A DNA stretch of 64,000 bases from a virus. Below the pieces are notes generated by a model that saw nothing but the letters and a program-made list of their open reading frames with translations, ran no database searches and was not told where the DNA came from. Positions 19,110 to 30,004 of the stretch are shown here, piece by piece. Position 1 is the stretch's first letter. Each line of letters starts with the position of its first letter. The DNA is taken from the IMG/VR virus record IMGVR_UViG_3300017971_000201, positions 1 through 64,000 of that record. One strand, 5' to 3'. Made by a program: the position numbers and the translations under genes.

Positions 19110-19177
19110 GCCCCAGTCTGCGAGGCAGATCGCGATCTTGTACGTCGCGAGGCTCGGTGCGACTCCGAGCTGGGGCT
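19110..19177 (+). tRNA. Non-canonical tRNA-Thr(TGT)-like
   Basis: gccccag/ctggggc acceptor, minimal D arm, 7-bp anticodon stem with loop cttgtac. Confidence 0.6.
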
Positions 19178-19283
19178 TTTCTCAGAAACGATGACAGGTC
19201 TCCGGGCCTCAGTCGTAAGAGGGTCAGTCAAGACGAGGGCGCACCAACCGGCCTTGCTAGCCGGACCTGGGCGTCAACGCACA

Positions 19284-19296
19284 GCTGTTTGACAAC
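19284..19296 (+). promoter_or_regulatory. boxA-like antitermination site
   Basis: gctgtttgacaac just before the first canonical tRNA; repeated at 27312. Confidence 0.55.
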
Positions 19297-19307
19297 TCGC
19301 TGTCTTT

Positions 19308-19379
19308 GGGATCTTAGCTTAGGAAGTAGAGCGCCCGGCTGAAAACCGGAAGGCCCGAGTGCAACTCTCGGAGATCCCA
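19308..19379 (+). tRNA. tRNA-Phe(GAA)
   Basis: Cloverleaf; loop ctgaaaa. Confidence 0.9.
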
Positions 19380-19382
19380 TCT

Positions 19383-19457
19383 GGTCGCGTGGTGTAGCCA
19401 AGTCAACATGCCAGCCCGTCAAGCTGGAGATCGCGGGTGCGAATCCCGTCGCGACCG
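19383..19457 (+). tRNA. tRNA-Asp(GTC), C at position 33
   Basis: ccagc-ccgtcaa-gctgg. Confidence 0.85.
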
Positions 19458-19576
19458 TCATGGGAACCTGGCTGGTACCCAGAGGAGGAGCAGAGCGCTT
19501 CGCAAGAACAGGAGGTGACCTGGTGAGAGGTACGCTCACCGCAGAGGCGAATACCTAGGGTCGGAATCAACACCGA

Positions 19577-19648
19577 TCCTGGGATGCTCGATGGTCGAGT
19601 AGCCGCCTGTTAAGCGGAATGATGTGGGTTCGAGTCCCACCCCAGGAG
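19577..19648 (+). tRNA. tRNA-Asn(GTT)
   Basis: Loop ctgttaa; canonical TTC T loop. Confidence 0.85.
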
Positions 19649-19657
19649 TACAAACTC

Positions 19658-19695
19658 ACCGTCAGGTTCTCGGTGCGAATCCGAGGGGGTGAGCC
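19658..19695 (+). pseudogene. Orphan 3' half of a tRNA (Asn-like)
   Basis: accgtc-aggtt-ctcgg tgcgaat ccgag-ggggtga-g with no D arm upstream. Confidence 0.55.
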
Positions 19696-19697
19696 GC

Positions 19698-19769
19698 GCG
19701 TCGCAGGGAGATCAGTTCATCCGTCGGTCTGCAACACCGAAGAACCCGGTGCGACTCCGGGGCGGCGCT
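19698..19769 (+). tRNA. tRNA-Cys(GCA)
   Basis: tcggt-ctgcaac-accga; U73. Confidence 0.85.
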
Positions 19770-19772
19770 TCT

Positions 19773-19844
19773 AGGTCGCGCGCAAGGTACGCGGGCGGGT
19801 CTCCAAAACCTGCCGTCTGCTGGGTGCAAGTCCCAGGCGGCCTG
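19773..19844 (+). tRNA. tRNA-Trp(CCA)
   Basis: gcgggt-ctccaaa-acctgc; short D arm. Confidence 0.85.
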
Positions 19845-19846
19845 TC

Positions 19847-19914
19847 GTCCGAATGCCGTTCGAGTCTACATCTACCAACACGCTGTGACTCGGCAACAAC
19901 AACGTCGGACACCA
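19847..19914 (+). ncRNA. Short Y-RNA-like gene 1
   Basis: gtccgaatgcc...ctacatc...ggcaac...aacgtcggac-acca terminal stem. Confidence 0.7.
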
Positions 19915-19915
19915 T

Positions 19916-19988
19916 TGCCCCCTAGCTCAACTAGTAGAGTGCTTGGCTCTGAACCAAGAGGTTGTCGGTGCGAATCCGACGGGGGCTG
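19916..19988 (+). tRNA. tRNA-Gln(CTG)
   Basis: cttgg-ctctgaa-ccaag. Confidence 0.9.
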
Positions 19989-19992
19989 TCAT

Positions 19993-20068
19993 CGCGTGGT
20001 AGAGCAGTCAGGTTGTGCTCGCTGGGCTCATAACCCGGAGGTCGTAGGTTCGAATCCTACCCACGCTA
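19993..20068 (+). tRNA. tRNA-Met(CAT), initiator type
   Basis: 1:72 mismatch, GGG/CCC anticodon stem, loop ctcataa. Confidence 0.9.
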
Positions 20069-20072
20069 ACAA

Positions 20073-20146
20073 TGCGCGGTAGTCTAGTCAGGTACGACAC
20101 TGGGCTCATAACCCAGAGATTGCAGGTTCGAATCCTGTCCGCGCGA
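20073..20146 (+). tRNA. tRNA-Met(CAT), initiator type
   Basis: ctggg-ctcataa-cccag. Confidence 0.85.
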
Positions 20147-20151
20147 TCTGT

Positions 20152-20223
20152 TGCCCCCTAGCTCAAGAGTAGAGCGTCCGGCTTTGAACCGGAAGGTTGA
20201 GGGTGCGACTCCCTCGGGGGCTG
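20152..20223 (+). tRNA. tRNA-Gln(TTG)
   Basis: tccgg-ctttgaa-ccgga. Confidence 0.9.
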
Positions 20224-20275
20224 TCGGAACGCACGACCGGACGTTCCCTTTTCCCCTTTCGTCCCGTCGTGCTCT

Positions 20276-20346
20276 GGGGCATTGGTGAAACAGGATCACG
20301 CGGGCTTTGCAAGCCTGAATTGAGAGTGCGACTCTCTCATGCTCCA
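20276..20346 (+). tRNA. tRNA-Ala(TGC)
   Basis: G3:U70; loop tttgcaa. Confidence 0.9.
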
Positions 20347-20349
20347 TGC

Positions 20350-20420
20350 GGGCCATTCGTACAACAGCAGGACATCTCTCTTACAAGGAGAAGACGGGGG
20401 TGCGACTCCCTCATGGCCCA
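20350..20420 (+). tRNA. tRNA-Val(TAC)
   Basis: Loop cttacaa. Confidence 0.9.
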
Positions 20421-20429
20421 AAGGAACAC

Positions 20430-20501
20430 GCGGCCTTAGTTCCAGCAGCAGAACACCGGCTTGCCATGCCGGAGGCACGGGTGCAAATCCCGTAGGCCGC
20501 T
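20430..20501 (+). tRNA. tRNA-Gly(GCC)
   Basis: ccggc-ttgccat-gccgg. Confidence 0.9.
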
Positions 20502-20505
20502 TCAA

Positions 20506-20586
20506 CCGTCTGGGGTCCACCTAGTGGTGGTGCCGCGCTGTAAACGCGGTCCTTCGGGCAACGTGGTGCGAATCCACGCAGGCGGA
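20506..20586 (+). tRNA. tRNA-Tyr(GTA) with C1:G72
   Basis: ccgtctg/caggcgg acceptor; ccgcg-ctgtaaa-cgcgg; variable arm. Confidence 0.85.
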
Positions 20587-20651
20587 TCGGATCGCAAGCA
20601 GCACGGCAAGGTCCGGCTGGCCCGGTGAGCCCCACTGGGTATCCGGCGCAC

Positions 20652-20722
20652 GCGGCCTTGGCGTAGTAGTAACGCGTCAGCTTCCCAAGCTGACCGCACG
20701 GGTGCAACTCCCGTAGGCCGCT
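20652..20722 (+). tRNA. tRNA-Gly(CCC)
   Basis: tcagc-ttcccaa-gctga. Confidence 0.9.
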
Positions 20723-20726
20723 TCAA

Positions 20727-20801
20727 GCTCGGTTGGTGAAAGAGAATCACGCGAGGTTGTGGACCTCGAGTTCTACGGTGCGATTCCGAGACCGGGTACC
20801 A
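20727..20801 (+). tRNA. tRNA-His(GTG)
   Basis: cgagg-ttgtgga-cctcg; irregular T stem; encoded CCA. Confidence 0.8.
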
Positions 20802-20802
20802 A

Positions 20803-20874
20803 GCCCCCATGGCCTAACAGACAAGGCGCGTGGCTACGGACCATGAGATCCGGGTGCAACTCCTGGTGGGGGTA
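20803..20874 (+). tRNA. tRNA-Arg(ACG)
   Basis: cgtgg-ctacgga-ccatg. Confidence 0.9.
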
Positions 20875-20878
20875 TCGA

Positions 20879-20953
20879 CGGGCACGAGTCTCCAGATGAG
20901 CTGTCGCGCCTTATATGCGTAACGGCCGGGTGCAACTCCCGGGTGCCCTACCA
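20879..20953 (+). tRNA. tRNA with TAT anticodon (Ile-UAU-like)
   Basis: gggcac/gtgccc acceptor, gcgc-cttatat-gcgt, encoded CCA. Confidence 0.65.
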
Positions 20954-20984
20954 GCTCCGCTAGCCCAACAGCAGAGGCGCCGGT
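20954..20984 (+). pseudogene. 5' half of split short-arm tRNA-Leu
   Basis: gctccgc-ta-gcccaacagcagaggc-gccggt; D arm identical to tRNA-Leu(CAG) at 21771; acceptor pairs with gcggagc at 21681. Confidence 0.8.
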
Positions 20985-21012
20985 AGACAAAGCAGTAACG
21001 ACGCTGTAAAAC
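20984..21012 (+). promoter_or_regulatory. Sigma70-like promoter at left junction of HNH cassette
   Basis: TAGACA-17 nt-TAAAAC (preceded by TG), 6 nt before ATG. Confidence 0.5.
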
Positions 21013-21018
21013 AGAGGT

Positions 21019-21585
21019 ATGCGCAAAGAAATCTACCGTAGTCCCCCGCAGCAGATGCATGGTTATGTGGCCTACATCGTTCGCTACGACGACGGATTCA
21101 AGACCACGTTGTTCGAGCACCGGCTTGTGATGGAGCAACATCTAGGGAGGGCGCTACGGTCCGACGAAGTCGTTCATCACATAGATGGCGACAAGACAAA
21201 CAACGCGGCCGAGAACCTGGAACTTACTACTCCGTCGAAGCACGCGTCGAAGCACGCACGTCCGGCGCCGATAGTCGACCTGACCTGTCTGGTATGTGAG
21301 CGCTCGTTTGTCCGGCTAGCTCGGAAGGAACAGGAAAGGATCAGGCGTAGGAAGCGCGGCCCGTACTGCGGCAAGAAGTGCGCGGGGGTAGGTAGTCGCA
21401 AGCATCGTGGCAGGAAACGGGACAGCAAAGGCCGTATTCGATGTAGCGACTGCAAGCTCTTCCTACCAGAAGCAGAGTTTTGCAGGGAGCGCGGCAGGCC
21501 GGGTGGTCTGAGTTACAGGTGCAGATCCTGTAAGGCGGCCCAATTTCAATACAGGAAGAACAAGCAAGCCTCGGTGGCGGAATAG
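21019..21585 (+). CDS. HNH homing endonuclease with Zn fingers
   Basis: EHRLVMEQHLGRAL..EVVHHIDGDKTNNAAENLEL; CxxC pairs. Confidence 0.9.
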   Translation: MRKEIYRSPPQQMHGYVAYIVRYDDGFKTTLFEHRLVMEQHLGRALRSDEVVHHIDGDKTNNAAENLELTTPSKHASKHARPAPIVDLTCLVCERSFVRLARKEQERIRRRKRGPYCGKKCAGVGSRKHRGRKRDSKGRIRCSDCKLFLPEAEFCRERGRPGGLSYRCRSCKAAQFQYRKNKQASVAE

Positions 21586-21650
21586 CAGACGCGCTGGTCT
21601 CAAGAACCAGTGTCCGAAAGGACGTGTGGGTGCGAATCCCACCCGAGGCA
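21568..21650 (+). tRNA. tRNA-Leu(CAA), long variable arm, nested in split tRNA-Leu
   Basis: ctggt-ctcaaga-accag; overlaps the HNH stop codon. Confidence 0.9.
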
Positions 21651-21688
21651 AACACAGGAGGTTCCCAGTGCAAATCTGGGGCGGAGCA
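21651..21688 (+). pseudogene. 3' half of split tRNA-Leu
   Basis: acagg-aggtt-cccag tgcaaat ctggg-gcggagc-a. Confidence 0.8.
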
Positions 21689-21690
21689 AC

Positions 21691-21764
21691 GGTCCCGTAG
21701 CCCAATCAGCAGAGGTCCCGGCCTAAACCCAGGAACGGTCTCGGTGCAAATCCGAGGCGGAGCA
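21691..21764 (+). pseudogene. Chimeric/degenerate tRNA-Leu
   Basis: 5' ggtcccg does not pair with 3' gcggagc; D and T arms intact. Confidence 0.6.
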
Positions 21765-21770
21765 TCACAC

Positions 21771-21843
21771 GATCCTGTAGCCCAACAGCAGAGGCGCCGC
21801 ACTCAGGATGCGGAGGTTGTCGGTGCAAATCCGACCAGGATCA
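21771..21843 (+). tRNA. tRNA-Leu(CAG), short variable loop
   Basis: ccgca-ctcagga-tgcgg; 5-nt variable region. Confidence 0.9.
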
Positions 21844-21845
21844 TC

Positions 21846-21913
21846 GCTCGAATGCCGTCGTGGACTACATCCTGAACACATGACGTCTGCGGCAACACCA
21901 ACGTCGAGCACCA
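21846..21913 (+). ncRNA. Short Y-RNA-like gene 2
   Basis: gctcgaatgcc...gactacatc...ggcaac...aacgtcgagc-acca; co-varying stem relative to 19847. Confidence 0.7.
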
Positions 21914-21914
21914 C

Positions 21915-21997
21915 GCTGCCGTGGCGGAACAGCAGACGCGCCTGGTTGAGGGCCAGGTTCCCGAAAGGGAGTGGAGGTGCAACTCCTCTCGGCAGCA
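21915..21997 (+). tRNA. tRNA-Leu(GAG)
   Basis: cctgg-ttgaggg-ccagg; long variable arm. Confidence 0.9.
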
Positions 21998-22001
21998 TCT
22001 T

Positions 22002-22074
22002 GGGGTCGTGGCCAAGCAGTAAGGCGCCGCTCTGATAAGGCGGAGACTCGTGAGTGCAAATCTCACCGGCCCCA
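22002..22074 (+). tRNA. tRNA-Ile(GAT)
   Basis: ccgct-ctgataa-ggcgg. Confidence 0.9.
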
Positions 22075-22092
22075 TGCGACGATGAAGATCGA

Positions 22093-22656
22093 GTGAACGT
22101 CTCGCACAAGCATCGGTTCGTCTTCCTCGCGAACATGCGCACGGGCACGCGCTGCGTGTTCCACGCGCTTCGCCGCTACTTCGCTTGCATCGGCGGTAGC
22201 CACGATGCCAGGACGCTGACACACAAGATCGGCATCCCGGCCGGCTGCGAGCGCTACCTCGTGATCGCCACGGTGCGAAACCCGTTCAGCAGGATGGTCT
22301 CCTGCTGGAACTGGGTGCGCGAGGTTCCCGGCTGGCCGAGCGGGATCGACAAGTTCGTGCGAGCGAATCCGCACGACTTCGCCGGCTTCGTCGAGCGCGC
22401 GATGTCGACCGGCTTCGACTCCCAGTCGAGGCGCCTGGGCGAGATCGAGCCGGACCAGCTGATCCGCTACGAGCGGCTCCAGGCGAGCTTCAGCGAGCTG
22501 CCGTTCGTCACCGACGAGCAGCTCCACATCGTTCCGCAGAGCCCGATCACGGCCAACTGGCAGAGCTGGTACAGGCCGGAGATCGAGAAGATGGTGGCCG
22601 AGAAGTGGGCCGATGACTTCGATCGCTTCGGCTACCCGAAGGTCATTGGAAGGTGA
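22093..22656 (+). CDS. Sulfotransferase family 2 protein
   Basis: SHKHRFVFLANMRTGT, VRNPFSRMVS, IRYERL, WADDFDRFGY. Confidence 0.8.
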   Translation: MNVSHKHRFVFLANMRTGTRCVFHALRRYFACIGGSHDARTLTHKIGIPAGCERYLVIATVRNPFSRMVSCWNWVREVPGWPSGIDKFVRANPHDFAGFVERAMSTGFDSQSRRLGEIEPDQLIRYERLQASFSELPFVTDEQLHIVPQSPITANWQSWYRPEIEKMVAEKWADDFDRFGYPKVIGR

Positions 22657-22734
22657 ACCGGACAAGCGAACCGGAGCGGCCTGCTAAGTCGTCTGTCCCC
22701 TTCGGGGGATGTGGTGCAAGTCCACCTCCTTCCG
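22648..22734 (+). tRNA. tRNA-Ser(GCT), 8/4 fold
   Basis: cggc-ctgctaa-gtcg; ggaaggtg/ctccttcc acceptor; 4-bp T stem. Confidence 0.85.
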
Positions 22735-22887
22735 TTCGAGCAAGCACTGCCCTCTGTGGCCCGGTGCTCGTCGCGTCGAGCTGTTCGCTAGATCGGTCGT
22801 TCCCGGATGGTGCTGCTACGGCAGCGAGATCGGATCAATGATAGTTCCTCGTGGCGTCAGGAAGATCAGCTAAGAGAGGAGGAGGCT

Positions 22888-23463
22888 ATGGGCCTTCTAG
22901 TGGACGACCCTTGCCTCGTCCTCAACAGATCCTGGCAGGTAGTGGGGTTTCTCCCGATCGGGACCTGCATCGCCACTGTCATGCGCGATATGGCCTCGAT
23001 CATGTGCCCGACGTCGTACTTCCTCATGGACCTGGACGAGTGGATCGACAGAGCTGAGACTGACAGGTTCATCAAGACAGCCAGCACTCCGATCCCGGCG
23101 CCCGAGGTGATCGTACTGAAGAAGTACGGCGAGAGGCCCCCGCGCAAGGTGAGCTTCAACCGCCCGAACCTCTACAGACGGGACGAGCACACCTGCCAGT
23201 ACTGTGGCGAGGAACTCCCGCCCAAGAACCTCACGATCGATCACGTGCTACCGAGATCGAAGGGAGGTCCCACGACCTGGGAGAACACGGTGGCAGCCTG
23301 CCGCTCGTGCAACCAGAGGAAGGCCGACAAGACCACTGACGAGGCGCGTATGAAGCCTCGGAAGAAGCCCGCCGCCCCACGCTGGACACCTGGAGTCAGG
23401 ATCCCGCGAGGCGAGGTCAGGGCTAGCTGGGAGCCATTCCTGGCGAAGGAGCGGGTCGCCTAG
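22888..23463 (+). CDS. HNH endonuclease (McrA-like, tRNA-array associated)
   Basis: LVLNRSW, RDEHTCQYCG, TIDHVLPRSKGG, WENTVAACRSCNQRK; ggagg RBS. Confidence 0.9.
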   Translation: MGLLVDDPCLVLNRSWQVVGFLPIGTCIATVMRDMASIMCPTSYFLMDLDEWIDRAETDRFIKTASTPIPAPEVIVLKKYGERPPRKVSFNRPNLYRRDEHTCQYCGEELPPKNLTIDHVLPRSKGGPTTWENTVAACRSCNQRKADKTTDEARMKPRKKPAAPRWTPGVRIPRGEVRASWEPFLAKERVA

Positions 23464-23481
23464 GAGGCCCGTCTCCGCCCC

Positions 23482-23565
23482 GGAGCCGAGAACCTGGGGT
23501 AGTCCTGGGGCTCGCTTGGAAAGCGATGCGTTCTTCGGATTGGAGTGCGACTCTCCCCGGCTCCG
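23482..23565 (+). tRNA. tRNA-Ser(GGA)
   Basis: tcgc-ttggaaa-gcga; 4-bp T stem. Confidence 0.8.
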
Positions 23566-23573
23566 TGCTTGCT

Positions 23574-23783
23574 ATGATCGGCGCTGTGAAAAGCAAGATC
23601 GAAGTAGGCGAAACGGTACTTAGAGCGACGCTTGGATCCAGCGGTGATCTAGTTGTCGTCTCGGGTATCGAATCAGACAACGGCGTGGTCACCCGCTACC
23701 TGGTTAAGCCTGTAGCTCAACCAGACAGCGAGCCTGAACTAGTTCCTGCTGATCTGATTCACAGCCTACGCAAACGCCCCTGA
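23574..23783 (+). CDS. Small hypothetical protein
   Basis: Lower-GC ORF between tRNAs. Confidence 0.45.
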   Translation: MIGAVKSKIEVGETVLRATLGSSGDLVVVSGIESDNGVVTRYLVKPVAQPDSEPELVPADLIHSLRKRP

Positions 23784-23811
23784 AGCAGAAGCAGTGCTGC
23801 GCCTGCCTCGT
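23776..23811 (+). pseudogene. 5' half of split tRNA-Thr(CGT)
   Basis: gcccctg-aa-gcag..ctgc-g-cctgc-ct-cgt. Confidence 0.75.
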
Positions 23812-23892
23812 CGCTCTGGGTGGGCGCAGAGACGAGAATTGTCAGACGTCTTTATCGCACCATGTTCTGTGCTCAGGTAAAGCCCGGAACAA

Positions 23893-23963
23893 GCTCCTGT
23901 AGTTCAACAGCAGAATGCCTCTCTCGTAAGGAGGAGACGCGGGTGCAATTCCCGCCGGGAGCT
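23893..23963 (+). tRNA. tRNA-Thr(CGT), nested in split tRNA-Thr(CGT)
   Basis: cctct-ctcgtaa-ggagg. Confidence 0.9.
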
Positions 23964-23976
23964 TCAGCCTCAGATC

Positions 23977-24015
23977 CGTAAGCAGGAGAACCCGGTGCGA
24001 CTCCGGGCGGGAGTA
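23977..24015 (+). pseudogene. 3' half of split tRNA-Thr(CGT)
   Basis: cgt-aa-gcagg-agaa-cccgg tgcgact ccggg-cgggagt-a. Confidence 0.75.
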
Positions 24016-24019
24016 TCAA

Positions 24020-24091
24020 GCTCGCGTCGTCCAACAGATAGGATACGAGCCTCCGAAGCTCGAGATCTGGGTGCGACTCCCAGCGCGGGTA
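24020..24091 (+). tRNA. tRNA-Arg(CCG)
   Basis: cgagc-ctccgaa-gctcg. Confidence 0.9.
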
Positions 24092-24166
24092 TACAGGATG
24101 GACCCAGCTCCGGCTGGGGTAAATAGCGGCTGGCTGCACACCATCCTCATCAGTCAGTCGCGCCAA

Positions 24167-24240
24167 CAGGGCGTGGCGCAGTCTAGCAGCGCGTTGGTCT
24201 GGGGGACCAAAGGTCGTGGGTGCGAATCCCACCGCCCTGA
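24167..24240 (+). tRNA. tRNA-Pro(GGG)
   Basis: ttggt-ctggggg-accaa. Confidence 0.9.
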
Positions 24241-24267
24241 TCAGGAACGGGCAGACCCGTTCCGCTT

Positions 24268-24338
24268 GCCCTGATAGCTTAGTAGCAGAGCACTCGCTTG
24301 GTACGCGAGAGATCCCGGTGCGACTCCGGGTCAGGGCT
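24268..24338 (+). tRNA. tRNA-Thr(GGT)
   Basis: ctcgc-ttggtac-gcgag. Confidence 0.9.
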
Positions 24339-24343
24339 TAGAC

Positions 24344-24631
24344 ATGGCGAAGCTACGACGAGAGAAGCTGCCGGACGGAACCGACGCCGGCCTGCTGTCG
24401 TTCCAGTGTCCAGGCTGTGGCGCGCGCCACGCCTTCCGCATCATGTTCGACCCGGACCTGCCCGAAGAGCAGGTATGGTCGTGGAACGGCGACATGGACG
24501 GGCCGACGTTCGACCCAGCGCTGAAGGCCCCAGGCTGCCACCTCCGGTGCGTCGAGGGCAAGCTGCACTTCTTCGTCGACTCGGGGCACAAGCTCGCCGG
24601 CCGGCTCGTGGACCTGCCCGACGAGCTGTGA
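24344..24631 (+). CDS. DUF6527-like Zn-binding protein
   Basis: FQCPGCGARH, WSWNGDMDGPTFDP, CH, DSGHKLAG. Confidence 0.7.
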   Translation: MAKLRREKLPDGTDAGLLSFQCPGCGARHAFRIMFDPDLPEEQVWSWNGDMDGPTFDPALKAPGCHLRCVEGKLHFFVDSGHKLAGRLVDLPDEL

Positions 24632-24632
24632 C

Positions 24633-24818
24633 GTGGCCGATTGCGATCACGAGTGGGAGGAGATCCACCACTACGGCGAGGATCTCGAGGGCCGGCTGAT
24701 CCACTACTGCCCGACCGGCTTCAAGTGGTGCAGGCTCTGCCGCAGGGTCGAAGACGAAGACAACCCCCAGTGCCATCTCTGGGGCGAACCAGATCCGATA
24801 CAACCCGCAGACACGTAG
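24633..24818 (+). CDS. Small Cys/His protein
   Basis: CDHEW...WCRLC. Confidence 0.45.
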   Translation: MADCDHEWEEIHHYGEDLEGRLIHYCPTGFKWCRLCRRVEDEDNPQCHLWGEPDPIQPADT

Positions 24819-24872
24819 AGTGGGCTCGCTCTCATAAGGCGATGCAAGACGGTGCAAGCCCGTCCTGCGGGA
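24804..24872 (+). tRNA. tRNA-Met/Ile2(CAT), elongator type with reduced D arm
   Basis: cccgcag/ctgcggg; tcgct-ctcataa-ggcga. Confidence 0.7.
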
Positions 24873-24876
24873 TCAT

Positions 24877-24913
24877 GGAACGTGAACCGGACAAGCGTGC
24901 CGGGCCGGTCTCG
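24877..24913 (+). pseudogene. 5' half of split tRNA-Ser(CGA)
   Basis: ggaacgtg-aa-ccggacaagcgtgccgg-gc-cggt-ct-cg; near-identical to the 5' end of Ser(GCT) at 22648. Confidence 0.85.
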
Positions 24914-24944
24914 CGCTACGATCCCGTCAATTACGGGGTGCATC

Positions 24945-25559
24945 ATGCCGGGCAAACGGCGACCGGACCTGAGAGAACGGGCCATCAACCTGCGGTGCAA
25001 GCAGAAGCTCGGCAGGAACGAGATTGCGCGTTGCCTTGGAGGGCTGGTGAGCCCTGTAACTGTTGGCCGGTGGTTGCGGAACCACCCGCTCCGTAAGAAC
25101 GAGGAGCGGCGGGTTCGCGAGACTGCCATCAAGAAAAGGCGCCCACGGCAACCGAAGCAGCCGAGAGTTCACTGCGAGGTCTGCGGAAAGAAGTGCAGTC
25201 GCGGGGCGAAGCGTTTTTGCTCTGATTGCGCGGTCGGACGAGTACGAAGTCCCAGACGAGAACCGACACAGCGTTACCTCGTCGAAGACAGGCTGGTCAA
25301 CTCGACGCGCCTCAAGACAAGACTCATCGAGGAGGGTTATCTAGAGGATCGTTGCGGCAAGTGCGGTTCGTTGCCGGAGTGGAACGGTGAGCCGCTCAAC
25401 CTCCAGCTGGATCACATCGACGGAAACCGTAGGAACAATCTTCTCAGCAACCTTCGGATTGTTTGTCCCAATTGCCACTCGCAGACGCCGACCTACGCTG
25501 CCAGGAATCGCAGGAATCCGAAGAGGTCGAGAAGGAAGCCGCGTTACGCGCACGAATGA
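24945..25559 (+). CDS. HNH homing endonuclease with N-terminal HTH
   Basis: CGKCG..EWNGEPLNLQLDHIDGNRRNNLLSNLRIVCPNCHSQT. Confidence 0.9.
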   Translation: MPGKRRPDLRERAINLRCKQKLGRNEIARCLGGLVSPVTVGRWLRNHPLRKNEERRVRETAIKKRRPRQPKQPRVHCEVCGKKCSRGAKRFCSDCAVGRVRSPRREPTQRYLVEDRLVNSTRLKTRLIEEGYLEDRCGKCGSLPEWNGEPLNLQLDHIDGNRRNNLLSNLRIVCPNCHSQTPTYAARNRRNPKRSRRKPRYAHE

Positions 25560-25563
25560 AATT

Positions 25564-25653
25564 GGAGAGCGTCCGGCTAGACGAGGAGCACGTCTCGAAA
25601 ACGTGTAGGGCGTACGTAAGTGCGTCTTCAGGGTGCGAGTCCCTGGCTCTCCG
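25564..25653 (+). tRNA. tRNA-Ser(CGA), canonical 7/5 fold, nested
   Basis: cacgt-ctcgaaa-acgtg; ggagagc/gctctcc. Confidence 0.9.
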
Positions 25654-25667
25654 TAGGAGCGGGAAGA

Positions 25668-25715
25668 CGAAAACCGTGCGTCCTTCGGGTTGGGGTGCAA
25701 CTCCTCCGCGTTCCG
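25668..25715 (+). pseudogene. 3' half of split tRNA-Ser(CGA)
   Basis: cga-aa-accg-variable arm-gggg tgcaact cctc-cgcgttcc-g. Confidence 0.85.
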
Positions 25716-25718
25716 TCA

Positions 25719-25791
25719 CAGGGTGTAGCTTAGGAGCAAAAGCGCCGCGTTCGGGACGCGGAGAGCGTGGGTGCGAGTCCCACCACCCTGA
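25719..25791 (+). tRNA. tRNA-Pro(CGG)
   Basis: ccgcg-ttcggga-cgcgg. Confidence 0.9.
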
Positions 25792-25815
25792 TCAACCATG
25801 AGGTAGAACATCTGC

Positions 25816-26262
25816 ATGAACGAACCCGAATGGTGCGCTCTCTGCGCGGACGCTCCGGCCGTCGGCCGGCTCTTTCCAGTGGTCTACCTCACGCAGGATG
25901 AGGTGAAGTCGGAGCGCCCGCTGCCGAGACACGAGACTCGCTGCTGCGCGCGGTGCGGGAACCAGGCGTCCGACAGCTTCGTTGACGAGAACTTCGAGAC
26001 CGGCCGGATGGCTGTACTCCAGTTCGAGCACGACGACTTCGCGAAGGTCTCCGAGAAGCGGATCCTCGAGCTGGTCGGTCAGCTCGAGAACGCGCAGTGC
26101 TCGCTGTGCGGTAAGAAGATGGAGAACGACCCGGATGCCATGCCGGCGCGTCCGCTGGCCGAGAAGCTGCTCCGGGAGCATCCGAACATGAAGTACGTGA
26201 CAGCAGTGTGCGCCGACTGCGCGCCGAGCTGCCCGTGCTGCGACGAAGAAGAGAACAACTAG
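25816..26262 (+). CDS. Multi-CxxC Zn-finger protein
   Basis: Four CxxC pairs plus CPCC. Confidence 0.65.
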   Translation: MNEPEWCALCADAPAVGRLFPVVYLTQDEVKSERPLPRHETRCCARCGNQASDSFVDENFETGRMAVLQFEHDDFAKVSEKRILELVGQLENAQCSLCGKKMENDPDAMPARPLAEKLLREHPNMKYVTAVCADCAPSCPCCDEEENN

Positions 26263-26333
26263 GGGCAGTAGCTCAATAGGAGAGCGCCTCGTTCGCAACG
26301 AGGAGGTTGTCGGTGCGACTCCGATCTGCTCCA
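26262..26333 (+). tRNA. tRNA-Ala(CGC)
   Basis: cctcg-ttcgcaa-cgagg. Confidence 0.9.
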
Positions 26334-26334
26334 T

Positions 26335-26422
26335 GAAGGCGTGACGAATCAGCGTCGTGGCTCGCGAGTGCGTTACGGAACTTGGGATCGTCGGGCTCCG
26401 GGTGCAACTCCCGGCGTCTTCA
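26335..26422 (+). ncRNA. tRNA-like RNA without a canonical anticodon arm
   Basis: gaaggcg/cgtcttc acceptor, D hairpin gacg/cgtc, T arm ccggg-tgcaact-cccgg. Confidence 0.55.
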
Positions 26423-26426
26423 TCAA

Positions 26427-26499
26427 GGGGCCTTAGCTCAGTTAGGAGAGCGCCGATCTGGCAGGTCGGAGGTCACGAGTGCGAATCTCGTAGGCTCCA
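26427..26499 (+). tRNA. tRNA-Ala(GGC)
   Basis: ccgat-ctggcag-gtcgg. Confidence 0.9.
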
Positions 26500-26500
26500 T

Positions 26501-26583
26501 GGAAGGTGATCTCGGCCAGCTGCCGAGCGCGGTTTTGAAAACCGATGGAGCTTCGGCTTGGGGTGCAACTCCTCCGCCTTCCG
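26501..26583 (+). tRNA. tRNA-Ser(TGA), 8/4 fold
   Basis: cggt-tttgaaa-accg; ggaaggtg/cgccttcc. Confidence 0.85.
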
Positions 26584-26584
26584 T

Positions 26585-26668
26585 GGGCTTCTACCGGAGA
26601 CCCAGTTCATGAGCGTGGTGGCCGGGCTCGCTAGCAGGGCGGGGTTCGATTCCCTCTGGAGGCTCCCA
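26585..26668 (+). ncRNA. tRNA-like element (T arm plus terminal stem)
   Basis: gggcttcta/tggaggctc stem, gggg-ttcgatt-ccct, ends cca. Confidence 0.4.
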
Positions 26669-26670
26669 AA

Positions 26671-26744
26671 GGGCGCGTAGCTCAGTTAGTCAGAGTGCCT
26701 CGGTGACATCGAGGAAGTCCTGGGTGCGAATCCCAGCGTGCCCA
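26671..26744 (+). tRNA. tRNA-Val(GAC)
   Basis: cctcg-gtgacat-cgagg. Confidence 0.9.
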
Positions 26745-26832
26745 TCGCAACTCGCGCGAGCGAGTCTGTGATGGTGGAGTGCGTCCGGTCTTCCGGTCGC
26801 CCCCGGCCGAGCCCCTCCCGGCTCGGCCACCT

Positions 26833-26903
26833 GGCCCCACGGTCTAGTAGCAAGATGCGAGTCTTTCACGCTCGAGAGGAGGGTGCGATTCCCTCTGGGG
26901 TCA
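26833..26903 (+). tRNA. tRNA-Glu(TTC)
   Basis: cgagt-ctttcac-gctcg. Confidence 0.9.
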
Positions 26904-26964
26904 TCGGCGATCCGCGCGACCGGCGGATGTAAGCGAGGCCACGCGCGGCCCCGCCCCAGCTCAC

Positions 26965-27035
26965 GCGGACGTACGTCAACAGCAGACTGTCGGGCTTCCA
27001 ACCCGTCGATGCCGGTGCAAATCCGGTCGTCCGCT
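26965..27035 (+). tRNA. tRNA-Gly(TCC)
   Basis: cggg-cttccaa-cccg. Confidence 0.85.
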
Positions 27036-27039
27036 TCCT

Positions 27040-27109
27040 GCCCCCGGCAGAGAGGCAGCCGGCTCTTCTAAAGCTGGCCTTCCCGGTGCGACTCCGGGCG
27101 GGGGTACCA
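27040..27109 (+). tRNA. Non-canonical tRNA-Arg(TCT)-like
   Basis: gcccccg/cgggggt, no clear D stem, 7-bp stem gccggct-cttctaa-agctggc, encoded CCA. Confidence 0.65.
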
Positions 27110-27110
27110 C

Positions 27111-27182
27111 GGGTCTGTGGTGTAACAGGAGCACACTCGGCTTTTACCCGAGGCGGTCAGGGTGCGAATCCCTGCGGACCCA
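27111..27182 (+). tRNA. tRNA-Lys(TTT)
   Basis: ctcgg-cttttac-ccgag. Confidence 0.9.
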
Positions 27183-27241
27183 TGAAACTTCCTTGCGGTT
27201 GTCGGCCGCAGGGTATAACCAAGACAGCGAGTGAAGGAGTC

Positions 27242-27306
27242 GTGCCGGTCCGAAGCCGATCCGTTTTCCCCACTTTCCCCCTTTAGGAAAAGCAACTGGC
27301 CGGCGC
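27242..27306 (+). ncRNA. Y-RNA-like gene, animal-Y-like architecture
   Basis: gtgccggtc-cgaag ... polypyrimidine loop ... ctggccggcgc. Confidence 0.7.
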
Positions 27307-27311
27307 GCTCC

Positions 27312-27324
27312 GCTCTTTGACAAC
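27312..27324 (+). promoter_or_regulatory. boxA-like antitermination site
   Basis: gctctttgacaac upstream of tmRNA. Confidence 0.6.
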
Positions 27325-27340
27325 TCGGGCACGAACACAC

Positions 27341-27689
27341 GGGGCTGACATGGCATCGACCGGGTCAGTGAATCTCGTGCTGCGTGTAGAGGTCCCCGGT
27401 TGGCCTCTCTAAACAACCGGGAAACTGAACAATTGCCAACGCACCTGTTCGCCTGGCAGCCTAAAAAGGCCGCCCCCAGCTGGATCCCCCGCCCATGGGG
27501 TGAAAGATCTGGGCCATAAGATGGGCTGGTCCCGCGCTGGAGTCTCAGCGGCAACGGACGAGAAACTACTGCGACGCCCCACGACCAGCATCCTGCTCTC
27601 GGTCTGGTCGCGGGTAAGCTCGAGAGCTACGCACGTAGACGCACGAAGGGATCGACTACGGGACCGGGGTTCGATTCCCCGCAGCTCCA
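27341..27689 (+). ncRNA. ssrA: tmRNA
   Basis: 5' ggggctga..gg.atcgac; tag ORF 27435-27464 = ANAPVRLAA*; 3' gaccggggttcgattccccgcagctcca. Confidence 0.95.
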
Positions 27690-27699
27690 GGTATCTCCA

Positions 27700-27728
27700 T
27701 TGAGCATCTCTCCTCCGCTCCATACAAT
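27700..27728 (+). promoter_or_regulatory. Sigma70-like promoter
   Basis: TTGAGC-17 nt-TACAAT followed by ggagg RBS. Confidence 0.6.
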
Positions 27729-27746
27729 CGGATCGGAGGTGCCGAG

Positions 27747-28352
27747 ATGCCCACAATGGAGACGATCGAGTGCGCCAGCTGCGGCCAGTCGGTTGAGAAG
27801 CCGCTCGGCGAGGTCACTCGATCGAAGAAGCTCGGCAGACCGATGTTCTGCGGTCTGTCGTGCTCGGCAACGCACAGGAACGCGACCAGAAAGGCGCGCG
27901 AGTTCGAGATGACCTGCGAGTGCGGTGAGGTGTTCACCACCACGACGCGCAACAAGGCCAAGCGTCACTGTTCGCGCTCATGTGCGAGCAGATTCTCGAT
28001 GACCAGAAGACGCCGGTCAGCGCAGCGCGCGGCCGGCAAGAAGCACAAGCAGAACCTCGACACAGCCAAGGCTATGAGGTCGCGAGAGGCTTGGAAGTAC
28101 TCGCTGCTGCGAGAAGAGTTGGGAGACCGGCCACATGAGTTCGAGTTCGAGCTTGGCGGTCGCATTTTCGACCTAGCCCTTCTCGACACCAAGATGCTGG
28201 TCGAGTTCGACGGTCCTAGTCATCGTGAAGGCCGACAACGGATGGAAGACGGAGCGAAAGACAAGCTCGCCGCCAAACTAGGATGGCGAGTCGTTCGACG
28301 GGAGGTGAAGCGGGCGACCGTGATCCACCCCTCGACGATCGAGGACTTGTAG
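27747..28352 (+). CDS. Zn-finger + DUF559/Vsr-like endonuclease
   Basis: Two CxxC..FC/HC.xxC repeats; FDLAL..LVEFDGPSH..D..KD..GWRVVR. Confidence 0.8.
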   Translation: MPTMETIECASCGQSVEKPLGEVTRSKKLGRPMFCGLSCSATHRNATRKAREFEMTCECGEVFTTTTRNKAKRHCSRSCASRFSMTRRRRSAQRAAGKKHKQNLDTAKAMRSREAWKYSLLREELGDRPHEFEFELGGRIFDLALLDTKMLVEFDGPSHREGRQRMEDGAKDKLAAKLGWRVVRREVKRATVIHPSTIEDL

Positions 28353-28375
28353 GGGTTCGATTCCCGCCAGCTCCA
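28352..28375 (+). repeat. Displaced duplicate of tmRNA 3' end
   Basis: ggggttcgattcccgccagctcca vs ggggttcgattccccgcagctcca at 27666-27689. Confidence 0.85.
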
Positions 28376-28379
28376 TCGA

Positions 28380-28453
28380 CGCGCGGTGGGCTAATCCGGT
28401 ACGCCGCCGGGCTCATAACCCGGAGACTGGGGGTTCGAATCCCTCCCGCGCTA
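28380..28453 (+). tRNA. tRNA-Met(CAT), initiator type
   Basis: ccggg-ctcataa-cccgg; 1:72 mismatch. Confidence 0.85.
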
Positions 28454-28480
28454 TCCCCTCTCGTCGATCACGATGTCGGC

Positions 28481-28603
28481 CGGCGGCCGAATGAACTGAC
28501 GGGAGTACATCAGTGAGCGCAGGCTCCTCTAGGTAACCTGGACTCGGCAGGGCTAGGAGGAGCCGACAACCCGGCGGCGTGACCGCAAGCTCTCACGTCG
28601 CCG
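28481..28603 (+). ncRNA. Y-RNA-like gene (longer, non-tRNA effector domain)
   Basis: cggcggccgaatg..ggagtacatc ... cacgtcgccg. Confidence 0.55.
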
Positions 28604-28641
28604 ACCAGGCGGTCGTGGGTGAGATCCCCGCGACCGTCATA

Positions 28642-28715
28642 GGACCGAATGCTCCGGCGGGACTACATCTTGAGGAGACGTTTCGTCTCGCTGACCCCAC
28701 AACGTCGGTCCACTA
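28642..28715 (+). ncRNA. Short Y-RNA-like gene 3
   Basis: ggaccgaatgc..gggactacatc ... caacgtcggtcc. Confidence 0.7.
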
Positions 28716-28721
28716 GAACAA

Positions 28722-28876
28722 CCCACGAATGCCTTGGGAGACTACATCCTGCAAGCCGGTGTCCGAATGGACGTGCGGGTTCGAGTCCCGCCCGGCCGCC
28801 TCGACGGCCGGTGGCGGAATGGTAGACGCGCCGGAGGTGGAGACACCATGAAGTCCCCCGCCCCTTACGTCGTGGG
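28722..28876 (+). ncRNA. yrlA: YrlA-type Y RNA (permuted tRNA mimic)
   Basis: cccacgaatgcc..gactacatc; then variable arm, T arm gcggg-ttcgagt-cccgc, loop-closed acceptor ccggccg/cggccgg, D arm tggcggaatggtagacgc; 3' acgtcgtggg closes the terminal stem. Confidence 0.85.
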
Positions 28877-28898
28877 CTCCACACAACACGTGCTAGGG

Positions 28899-29375
28899 AT
28901 GTACCTGTTCGGCTTCATCGTCGAAGACGACAAGACGCTGACCCCTGGTCTGATGGAGCGGATCGTGTCCGAGGAGAATCGCAGCGTGGTGGACATCCTC
29001 GCGGACATCGGCAAGACGCCGAAGGAGATCCGCCAGCTGATGCGCGAGACCGCCGAAGACATGGCGAGATGGTGCCTGCGCACGCACGTGCGTCCGGTCG
29101 ATGCCCGACACCGGATCCACGCCGCTGCGATGTCCGTCTTGAAGGGCCGGCGCTTCTCGGGAGCCTCCCCGAAGAGGTCGGCCGACAAGATGGTCTCGAG
29201 GATCATGTGCGACTACGAGCGCGACTACGGTAACTGGCTCGCCAGGGTGCGGCGCGAGCGAGCCCGGCAGGAGCGCGACGGCGAAGCCTACGTCCCCTGG
29301 CAGCAGCGTCATGCCAAGCAGCGTGCCGACGAACTCAAGAAGCGGTGGAAGGGCCGGCGGCGCGGGAAGCGATGA
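28899..29375 (+). CDS. Hypothetical protein
   Basis: ORF starting MYLFGFIV. Confidence 0.55.
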   Translation: MYLFGFIVEDDKTLTPGLMERIVSEENRSVVDILADIGKTPKEIRQLMRETAEDMARWCLRTHVRPVDARHRIHAAAMSVLKGRRFSGASPKRSADKMVSRIMCDYERDYGNWLARVRRERARQERDGEAYVPWQQRHAKQRADELKKRWKGRRRGKR

Positions 29376-29656
29376 GGAACCGCATCCAGAAGAACGATCG
29401 CGTCATCCTGGTGGACAACAGGATCCACCCGGAGATTCCGAACGGCACGCGCGGATGGGCCTACCACATCGCTACGATGATGGGCGGTGACGTATACGTG
29501 CGGTGGACCGATCGCTCGCCAGATGGCAGTTGCATCGATGACTGCTACTTCCCGCAGAGCTGCCTGGACCATCTGAGTGCTGTCGATCGGCTGGCAGAGC
29601 TGGTCAGCGCTGACCTGGGGTCGGGGAACACAGGTCCCCCAAGTGTTCTCCCATAA
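29372..29656 (+). CDS. Small SH3-like protein with SAVDRL motif
   Basis: DRVILV..GTRG..VYVRW..LDHLSAVDRLAELV. Confidence 0.6.
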   Translation: MRNRIQKNDRVILVDNRIHPEIPNGTRGWAYHIATMMGGDVYVRWTDRSPDGSCIDDCYFPQSCLDHLSAVDRLAELVSADLGSGNTGPPSVLP

Positions 29657-29706
29657 ACCTAGATTTTTCCGACAGGAGGAGCTAGGCTCTCGGTAGAGCT
29701 TGACCC

Positions 29707-29925
29707 ATGAGCCGCTCCGATGTAGTTGCTGCGAGCCTCGCTGCCACGTGCTCCGTCTGTGGGGAGACCCACCCGGAGGAATTCGAGGAGCGGTTCCGCG
29801 CGATTCTGGCCCAGGACCCGGCGCTCGCGTCTGATCCTGATGTCCAGTGGATCTTCACGTGCGGATCCTGCTCCGCCAAGGGTTTATGCCCGTGCTGCCA
29901 GGGCTCCCAGCAGGGAGCCGCCTAA
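29707..29925 (+). CDS. Small Zn-finger protein
   Basis: CSVC..CGSC..CPCC, like the C-terminus of 25816-26262. Confidence 0.55.
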   Translation: MSRSDVVAASLAATCSVCGETHPEEFEERFRAILAQDPALASDPDVQWIFTCGSCSAKGLCPCCQGSQQGAA

Positions 29926-29929
29926 GCAC

Positions 29930-30004
29930 GGACGCGTGGCCCAACGGCAGGAGGCTAACCACTTAAAATGGTTGAAGTTGTGGGTTCGACTCCCACCGCG
30001 TCCA
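29930..30004 (+). tRNA. tRNA-Leu(TAA), short variable region
   Basis: aacca-cttaaaa-tggtt; canonical GG/TTC elbow. Confidence 0.85.

Follow-up and report, generated by a model that had tools for sequence, protein, structure and literature searches.

The tRNA array and its interrupted genes

The first 64,000 nucleotides (nt) of the IMG/VR virus record IMGVR_UViG_3300017971_000201, hereafter the window, carry at 19.1–30 kb an array of about 40 tRNA genes and one transfer-messenger RNA (tmRNA) gene, and several of these RNA genes have been broken by small insertions. The full record comprises 159,664 bases at 65% G+C, is rated 58% complete, and was found in metagenomes of marine sediment and seawater; a search of cultured-phage DNA found no relative of the window. 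In three places the 5′ and 3′ halves of a tRNA gene flank an insert whose right end is an intact, divergent tRNA gene for the same amino acid. An earlier note on this DNA had described this arrangement for Leu, Thr-CGU and Ser-CGA, and all of its coordinates were verified, as was the presence of an HNH gene in two of the inserts. These belong to Pfam HNH_3 (Leu) and HNH (Ser) and are unrelated to each other, and the Thr insert has none. The features are listed below, together with matches in L001 (a 275-kb contig, 80–87% identical around the array) and in run X2.

20954..20984, + strand: 5′ half (positions 1–31) of a short-arm tRNA-Leu, probably CAA; 7/7 acceptor pairing with 21681-21687
21019..21585, + strand: HNH_3 nuclease, 188 amino acids, C-terminal zinc ribbons; Pfam HNH_3 E 8.6e-13, HNH in PHROGs
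21568..21650, + strand: replacement long-arm tRNA-Leu(CAA); ARAGORN 113, Rfam 53.8 bits; 56% identical to the joined halves
21649..21688, + strand: broken tRNA-Leu 3′ half; first 2 nt common with the end of the replacement (microhomology)
23776..23811, + strand: tRNA-Thr(CGU) 5′ half, ending in the anticodon; the intact Thr-CGU gene of L001 is 74% identical to the joined halves
23812..23892, + strand: non-coding leftover of the Thr insert, 81 nt; HNH profile and shuffle test negative for a nuclease remnant
23893..23964, + strand: replacement tRNA-Thr(CGU); ARAGORN 104.8, Rfam 60 bits
23977..24015, + strand: tRNA-Thr 3′ half, with a second copy of the anticodon; an Arg-CCU gene since deleted is the probable source of the acceptor strand
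24877..24913, + strand: tRNA-Ser(CGA) 5′ half, its last letters being CG of the anticodon; the intact Ser-CGA gene of L001 is 76% identical to the joined halves
24945..25559, + strand: helix-turn-helix (HTH)/zinc-ribbon/HNH nuclease, 204 amino acids, of a tRNA-array-associated family; PHROG 10822 E 1e-29
25564..25653, + strand: replacement tRNA-Ser(CGA); ARAGORN 105.6; 58% identical to the joined halves
25668..25715, + strand: broken tRNA-Ser 3′ half, CG duplicated; pairs with the 5′ half; empty-allele joint in run X2

Joined in silico, each pair of halves folds as a cloverleaf, with ARAGORN scores of 92.8 for Thr, 87.3 for Ser and 97.9 for Leu; these lie below the default cut-off of 100, as do the scores of the intact resident genes for Ser-GCU (86.6) and Ser-UGA (87.3). 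The Leu join was built from real letters only, with two insert letters filling the missing positions 32–33; a version with two invented letters (score 105.4) was not used as evidence. Pairing between the halves in the acceptor and anticodon stems, respectively, is 7/7 and 4/5 for Leu, 6/7 and 5/5 for Thr, and 7/7 and 4/5 for Ser, and none of 656 unrelated tRNA 3′ halves pairs equally well with any of the three 5′ halves. Since the replacement tRNAs are 56–68% identical to the joined halves, they are not duplicates of the genes that they accompany.

As reported earlier, the anticodon is the same in the broken and the replacement gene for Thr (CGU) and Ser (CGA), and the breaks fall at it: the Thr anticodon is present at both junctions (23809-23811 and 23977-23979), as are two letters of the Ser anticodon (24912-24913 and 25668-25669). 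The anticodon of the broken Leu gene is incompletely preserved. It is probably CAA, which is favoured by letters 21649-21651 and by gene order in contig L002; sequence alone barely separates CAA from UAG, the joined gene being 76% identical to the intact Leu-CAA of L002 and 73% identical to Leu-UAG. Junction microhomologies amount to 2–3 nt, and at the junctions the half gives way to non-tRNA sequence rather than to the donor tRNA. The stop codon of the Leu HNH gene falls within the replacement tRNA-Leu, and the match of the Ser-insert open reading frame (ORF) to Pfam HNH (E 3e-5) is just under the cut-off. A remnant of an HNH gene was suspected in the Thr insert and rejected (p 0.34). The Thr 3′ half fits Thr in the anticodon stem, variable loop and T-arm, and its last 7 nt, with the letters downstream, match the end of the Arg-CCU gene of L001, a gene that is absent here. 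Thus the dead half was probably joined to Arg-CCU by a subsequent deletion, and the 3′ half is probably a Thr/Arg-CCU chimera.

The assembly across the cassettes is supported by contigs of two studies: a contig of X1, possibly the source sample of the record, spans 20500-28677 without differences, and each tRNA cassette is crossed by contigs from a second study. In 33 of 38 array tRNAs (19110-30004) G55 replaces U55 in the T-loop, and G55 is also present in all three replacement tRNAs, so the donors of the cassettes were probably phages of the same clade rather than the host. As speculation, G55 might erase the motif that is recognised by SegB-type nucleases, which are discussed below.

A related arrangement lies outside the three cassettes. 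A foreign-style tRNA-Asn(GUU) at 19577-19648 is followed 10 nt later by an orphan 3′ half of a resident-type tRNA-Asn (19659-19693, + strand), which can be aligned to the Asn genes found at the syntenic position in L001. A matching 5′ half was not found, and the site (19577-19693) is a probable fourth replacement scar.

Uninterrupted alleles in relatives

L001 has an intact Thr-CGU (74% identical to the joined halves), an intact Ser-CGA (76%) and a tmRNA free of insert, and L002 has an intact short-arm Leu-CAA after Ile-UAU, in the same gene order as the window. For Ser, the empty allele is also found in run X2, where position 24911 is joined directly to 25668 in a contig of low depth; two letters at the joint could belong to either side, and the missing stretch corresponds exactly to the Ser cassette. 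This joint is known from contig matches at an 85% likeness threshold, and the main contigs of X2 break at both ends of the cassette. Searches with exact patterns of the empty alleles found none for Ser and Leu beyond L001, and for Thr returned only four unrelated canonical Thr tRNAs.

The Leu site of L001 is informative in another way. There the same 5′ half, broken after position 33, is followed by 20 residues that remain of a member of the Ser-type HNH family (E 9e-10) and by a different short-arm Leu-CAA, and the 3′ half has been lost. Since both the HNH family and the spare gene differ from those in the window, the Leu site appears to have been invaded twice independently, even though the junction in L001 may be secondary, after deletion. 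Elsewhere in L001 (11416-12210) a degenerate Pro-like tRNA precedes a 206-residue HTH ORF, with a possible PD-(D/E)xK domain as read by eye, that stops inside a different Pro-CGG gene; the corresponding gene of the window is a plain Pro-CGG.

The tmRNA cassette and its nuclease family

The earlier note had also pointed to an analogous event at the 3′ end of the tmRNA, with a third, unrelated nuclease. This stands, the nuclease being a DUF559/Vsr-like ORF.

27341..27689, + strand: tmRNA, Rfam 126 bits; the T-arm and acceptor 3′ end (27665-27689) arrived with the insert or were recoded by it
27700..27750, + strand: sigma-70-like promoter (27700-27728) within a hairpin over the ribosome-binding site and start codon; hairpin z −3.25
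27747..28352, + strand: zinc-finger and Vsr-like (DUF559) nuclease, 201 amino acids, of a tmRNA-associated family; Pfam DUF559 E 5.5e-6
28353..28375, + strand: displaced original tmRNA 3′ end, with partial T-arm and acceptor strand; resembles the 3′ end of the empty allele of L001

The top Foldseek match of this nuclease is the catalytic domain of I-Bth0305I (3r3p; probability 1.00, E 5.8e-3, 18% identity), and D142, E153, D155, H159 and D168 are invariant among 20 homologues. A homologue search returned 120 proteins, 2 of them from this genome, with no close relative in the viral contig set, and 11 homologue loci with DNA were examined. In all 11 the nuclease adjoins a tmRNA. Its start lies 32–67 nt past the tmRNA 3′ end in 9 of the 11 and 320 nt past it in one; also counted is a distant member of the family that overlaps a permuted (two-piece) tmRNA (L222, 801-1640). 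Downstream of the nuclease stop codon the window has a T-loop and acceptor strand, and four of these loci (L208, L209, L210, L214) share this feature. Comparison of the working with the displaced tmRNA end shows that the T-stem differs in 5/5 pairs and the acceptor strand is identical in 4/5. Such a change of the T-stem with a kept acceptor strand is what one would expect from recoding of a target under pairing constraint, and we consider it the best indirect sign of a resistant replacement.

The promoter match (9/12) is, taken alone, at chance level. The start-covering hairpin recurs in five homologous cassettes (z −3.2 to −7.5 with that of the window; homologues z −4.2, −7.5), and hairpins of this kind are known to control phage homing nucleases (PMC2988022, PMC2677866). 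Before the two HNH genes of the window, hairpins scored no better than shuffles.

The Ser-type HNH family outside the window

Homologues of the Ser HNH nuclease were gathered from viral, metagenome, genome and cultured-phage sets, giving 108 non-redundant loci, of which 85 contain tRNAs; in 49 a tRNA lies at most 60 nt downstream of the nuclease gene. Ten loci outside the window, in unrelated phage-like contigs, have an orphan tRNA 5′ half beside the nuclease and an intact tRNA, in one of two orders:

Half, HNH, tRNA: L074, L080, L084, L167, L187, L204
Half, tRNA, HNH: L075, L081, L117, L184

The matching 3′ half is retained in five of the ten, and the breaks concentrate near tRNA positions 30–36. 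Held-out profiles name the amino acid of the replacement for the 5′ half in nine of the ten, against a same-amino-acid background of 10% among 684 neighbouring intact tRNA pairs; with doubtful candidates included, 9/13 agree (p 5e-7 vs the 10% background). The tenth (L204) comes from the cultured cyanophage DSL-LC03; the letters that it retains identify it as Thr, as do S-SSM5 and Syn19 through their sequence and their order Leu-Thr. A split detector based on structure alone proved too noisy and was dropped, and further candidates were excluded from the split count: L077/L128 and L103, with a whole degenerate tRNA upstream, as well as L100 and L198. The profile detectors missed known halves, and the split counts are thus lower bounds. 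In DSL-LC03 itself (Synechococcus phage, OR003938.1; L204, 1164-1710) the order is Thr 5′ half, hairpin, HNH and replacement Thr-UGU; the hairpin holds a T4-like late promoter motif, and the tRNAs are unannotated in the record.

The same HNH family also occurs inside a group I intron after U34 of tRNA-Leu(UAA), as read from sequence in six viral and metagenome contigs (L083, L087, L153, L154, L156, L177). In a tree of the family these intron-borne enzymes intermix with free-standing copies beside intact Leu-UAA genes; one pair has support of 96/96, and the whole group only 90/82. The split cases, covering at least seven amino acids within this one family, are scattered over the tree, which suggests that split cassettes arose many times. 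Since kin cluster on the tree, it carries no weight here as a test of co-evolution. The homologues of the Leu HNH nuclease match in the HNH domain only and are seldom near tRNAs, and are therefore uninformative on its target.

Intronless homing as the probable origin of the cassettes

We favour, with reasonable confidence, the reading that the cassettes arose by intronless homing, each free-standing endonuclease having as its target the RNA gene next to it. In its favour are the empty alleles of L001 and X2, the second, independent hit at the Leu site, the matching amino acids and clustered breaks of the outside cases, the occurrence of the Ser-type HNH family in introns at Leu-UAA, the tmRNA beside the tmRNA nuclease at all 11 loci examined together with the displaced tmRNA ends, and start-covering hairpins like those of known phage homing nucleases. 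The point of departure would be a donor phage in which the nuclease gene directly abuts a tRNA gene, the arrangement found at nearly half of the HNH homologue loci. On co-infection the nuclease would cut the allele of a rival phage, near the anticodon or, for the tmRNA, at the T-stem, and spare that of the donor. Where the flanks are too divergent for gene conversion, the donor block of nuclease and tRNA would be captured through the 2–3 nt microhomologies seen at the junctions, leaving the order 5′ half, nuclease, intact tRNA, 3′ half; for the tmRNA, replacement would be limited to the T-arm and acceptor end. Decoding of the codon would be maintained by the spare tRNA that arrived with the nuclease, splicing would be unnecessary, and the halves would be dead. 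The halves could then serve as flanking homology with which the cassette homes into close relatives that have the intact gene, and the empty Ser allele does co-occur in X2. After fixation the nuclease and halves would decay and the spare tRNA would stay. Stages that fit such decay are the Thr insert with its nuclease missing, the 20-residue HNH remnant and lost 3′ half in L001, and the loss of Arg-CCU nearby.

The proposal of the earlier note that homing here is independent of splicing thus gains from the empty alleles, the lack of recognisable introns, the homing-type nucleases and the recurrence with matching amino acid in unrelated contigs. Its further idea, of a cassette purpose-built to destroy its target and supply a resistant copy, fares worse: the structure looks more like a scar that ordinary intronless homing left when divergent phages met, and that could home like an intron thereafter. 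More tentatively, and at somewhat short of an even chance in our estimate, the cassettes may represent a widespread phage "cut-and-rescue" gene drive, in which unrelated nuclease families, each recognising a single tRNA or tmRNA allele, are accompanied by a recoded and resistant copy of it, an arrangement that would be an alternative, at the level of DNA, to self-splicing introns; such a drive would include the tmRNA-specific Vsr-like family and explain the "tRNA-encoding introns" of jumbo phages.

Several considerations weigh against homing by target-specific enzymes. That the nucleases cleave these genes, and home into them, is an inference. The Ser replacement shares an identical 11-nt anticodon core with the broken gene and the Thr replacement retains its entire anticodon loop, so that any resistance must lie in the flanking stems. 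The outside cases were partly picked by eye, the classifier behind their amino-acid assignments is weak (31/90 on held-out 5′ halves) and did not rank the window's own three halves first, and most members of the Ser HNH family that adjoin a tRNA do so with no scar. Moreover, SegB, the one tRNA-cutting homing nuclease with experimental tests in the literature consulted, recognises a T-loop motif that is shared among tRNA genes, by which it cuts many of them, including those of its own phage (PMC2330249), and isoacceptor-level specificity is thus not a given. This leads to a rival account, in which a nuclease of broad, SegB-like specificity nicks or cuts many tRNA genes, similarity of the anticodon loop steers where the incoming DNA lands, and selection keeps those events that restore a tRNA, the replacement not being specially resistant. 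The spread of the split cases of one HNH family over at least seven amino acids and over its tree would suit this account, as would the anticodon cores shared between broken and replacement genes. Yet the halves run into non-tRNA sequence at the junctions, so that loop homology did not form the joints; the intron-borne and free-standing HNHs cluster at Leu-UAA; and the tmRNA family is tied to a single target at all 11 loci. On balance we think this account unlikely, while the anticodon cores kept in the tRNA replacements mean that SegB-like specificity plus selection is a rival to be reckoned with.

The remaining alternatives are less likely still. If random illegitimate recombination in the arrays were at work, with selection for a complete tRNA set, the nucleases would be passengers; the Thr insert and the Asn scar do lack a nuclease, and nucleases are common in tRNA arrays regardless. 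But the breaks cluster at about positions 30–36, one site was hit twice independently, and a tRNA captured at random would seldom be one for the same amino acid, which makes this mosaicism quite improbable. Integrative elements at tRNA and tmRNA genes replace the tmRNA 3′ end and displace the old end downstream, and the tmRNA cassette has this very layout, the new 3′ end on the left and the old one on the right. That the cassettes are decayed integrase-type elements, which entered at the anticodon loop or tmRNA 3′ end, is nevertheless scarcely credible: no integrase occurs in any insert or homologue insert examined, and the left junctions of the tRNA inserts fail to restore the gene, unlike attL sites, restoration by a partial copy being seen for the tmRNA only. 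Unlike integrative elements, too, the inserts are one-gene affairs, and those in tRNAs supply a divergent gene in full, not a half that would restore the old one. Removal at the RNA level, by an unrecognised intron or by processing and ligation of the halves, as assumed for the tRNA "introns" of Lak phages, is very improbable as well. For it one can cite that the halves still pair, that a Ro60/TROVE-type gene neighbours the array, and that the nested form was called an intron in published work (PMC6784885). Rfam gave no intron match in the inserts, however, and they lack the ribozyme core and splice-site nucleotides of group I and group II introns, including the pattern of U before and G at the end that marks the true introns of L083 and L087. 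The 165-nt Thr insert is too small to hold a ribozyme as well as its tRNA, the record (itself only 58% complete) yielded no RtcB, and halves have been lost or fused in relatives and in the window. From these sequence features, splicing of the inserts is unlikely.

Relation to known systems

Intronless homing of the kind that we favour has close precedents. Free-standing nucleases such as SegB of T4/T6, SegF, SegG and MobE cut a rival's allele of a nearby gene and get copied with their neighbours (PMC2330249, PMC13096335, PMC2988022), and a free-standing nuclease in a phage tRNA array, with a start-covering hairpin in the tmRNA case, would likewise be expected to carry neighbouring tRNA genes. 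SegB is a GIY-YIG enzyme that lies between genes, recognises the shared T-loop and converts the homologous region; the HNH and Vsr-like genes of the window, unlike it, lie inside the broken target with one matching spare gene. In "fractured genes" (Dassa 2009, PMC2677866) a free-standing endonuclease gene also sits between the halves of a phage gene, but there the interrupted genes encode proteins and depend for their rescue on split inteins or group I introns, whereas here RNA genes are rescued by a replacement copy. The Vsr-like fold predicted for the tmRNA nuclease would resemble that of I-Bth0305I (PMC3239194), whose structure is its best PDB match. The insertion zone is the one used by endonuclease-bearing group I introns in tRNA anticodon loops (I-Ssp6803I in a cyanobacterial tRNA; the Leu-UAA introns), from which the cassettes differ in having no ribozyme in the window and in restoring function at the DNA level through a second gene.

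The nested architecture itself is known, and the statement in the earlier note that it had no description has to be amended. A tRNA-encoding "intron" in the tRNA-Thr(UGU) of Lak megaphages was reported as unexplained (Devoto 2019, PMC6784885), and a nested tRNA was noted again in jumbo phages (PMC13037316). The Lak case resembles ours in that one tRNA lies inside another that is split, and in that relatives have empty alleles; as known to us from the published description, it is an intron given with neither nuclease nor mechanism. The explanation by a nuclease and a replacement tRNA, and a tmRNA target for a Vsr-like nuclease family, were not found in the literature searched, which was mostly open-access, and the nuclease-plus-replacement reading is new relative to that literature. 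The main text of Al-Shayeb 2020 does not mention introns, and the passages of Barth 2023 that were consulted cover nuclease islands and not split tRNAs.

Intronless homing may explain, in testable form, the tRNA-inside-tRNA "introns" of giant phages, nested genes that intron-aware tRNA finders mis-annotate. It would mean that phages exchange their tRNA sets one gene at a time, a point of relevance to the renewal of tRNAs against host anticodon nucleases. One HNH family with intron-borne and spare-gene forms at the same type of target links two lifestyles of homing nucleases, the tmRNA is added as a likely homing target, and the cassettes would be a natural counterpart to engineered homing-rescue drives.

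Other features of the record

An HNH gene within the array (22888-23463) is conserved in L001 (76% identical) and was therefore not counted among the mobile nucleases; its counterpart in L002 (10001-11600) is interrupted in frame, apparently by an intein. The Leu-UAA gene of the array (21692-21765) has a damaged acceptor stem, with 4/7 pairs, and an intact canonical Leu-UAA lies outside the array at 29930-30004. Four resident tRNA-like genes of odd fold (Ser-GCU, 22650-22735; Ser-GGA, 23464-23566; Ser-UGA, 26501-26584; a CAU gene, 24801-24872) are missed by ARAGORN at default settings. A TROVE/Ro60-like gene lies upstream of the array (16722-18395), and a weak match to the YrlA Y-RNA lies downstream (28774-28829). 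Additional Vsr-like or HNH nuclease genes occur in the genome at 39501-40097 (− strand), 84296-84466 and 144606-145301 (− strand).

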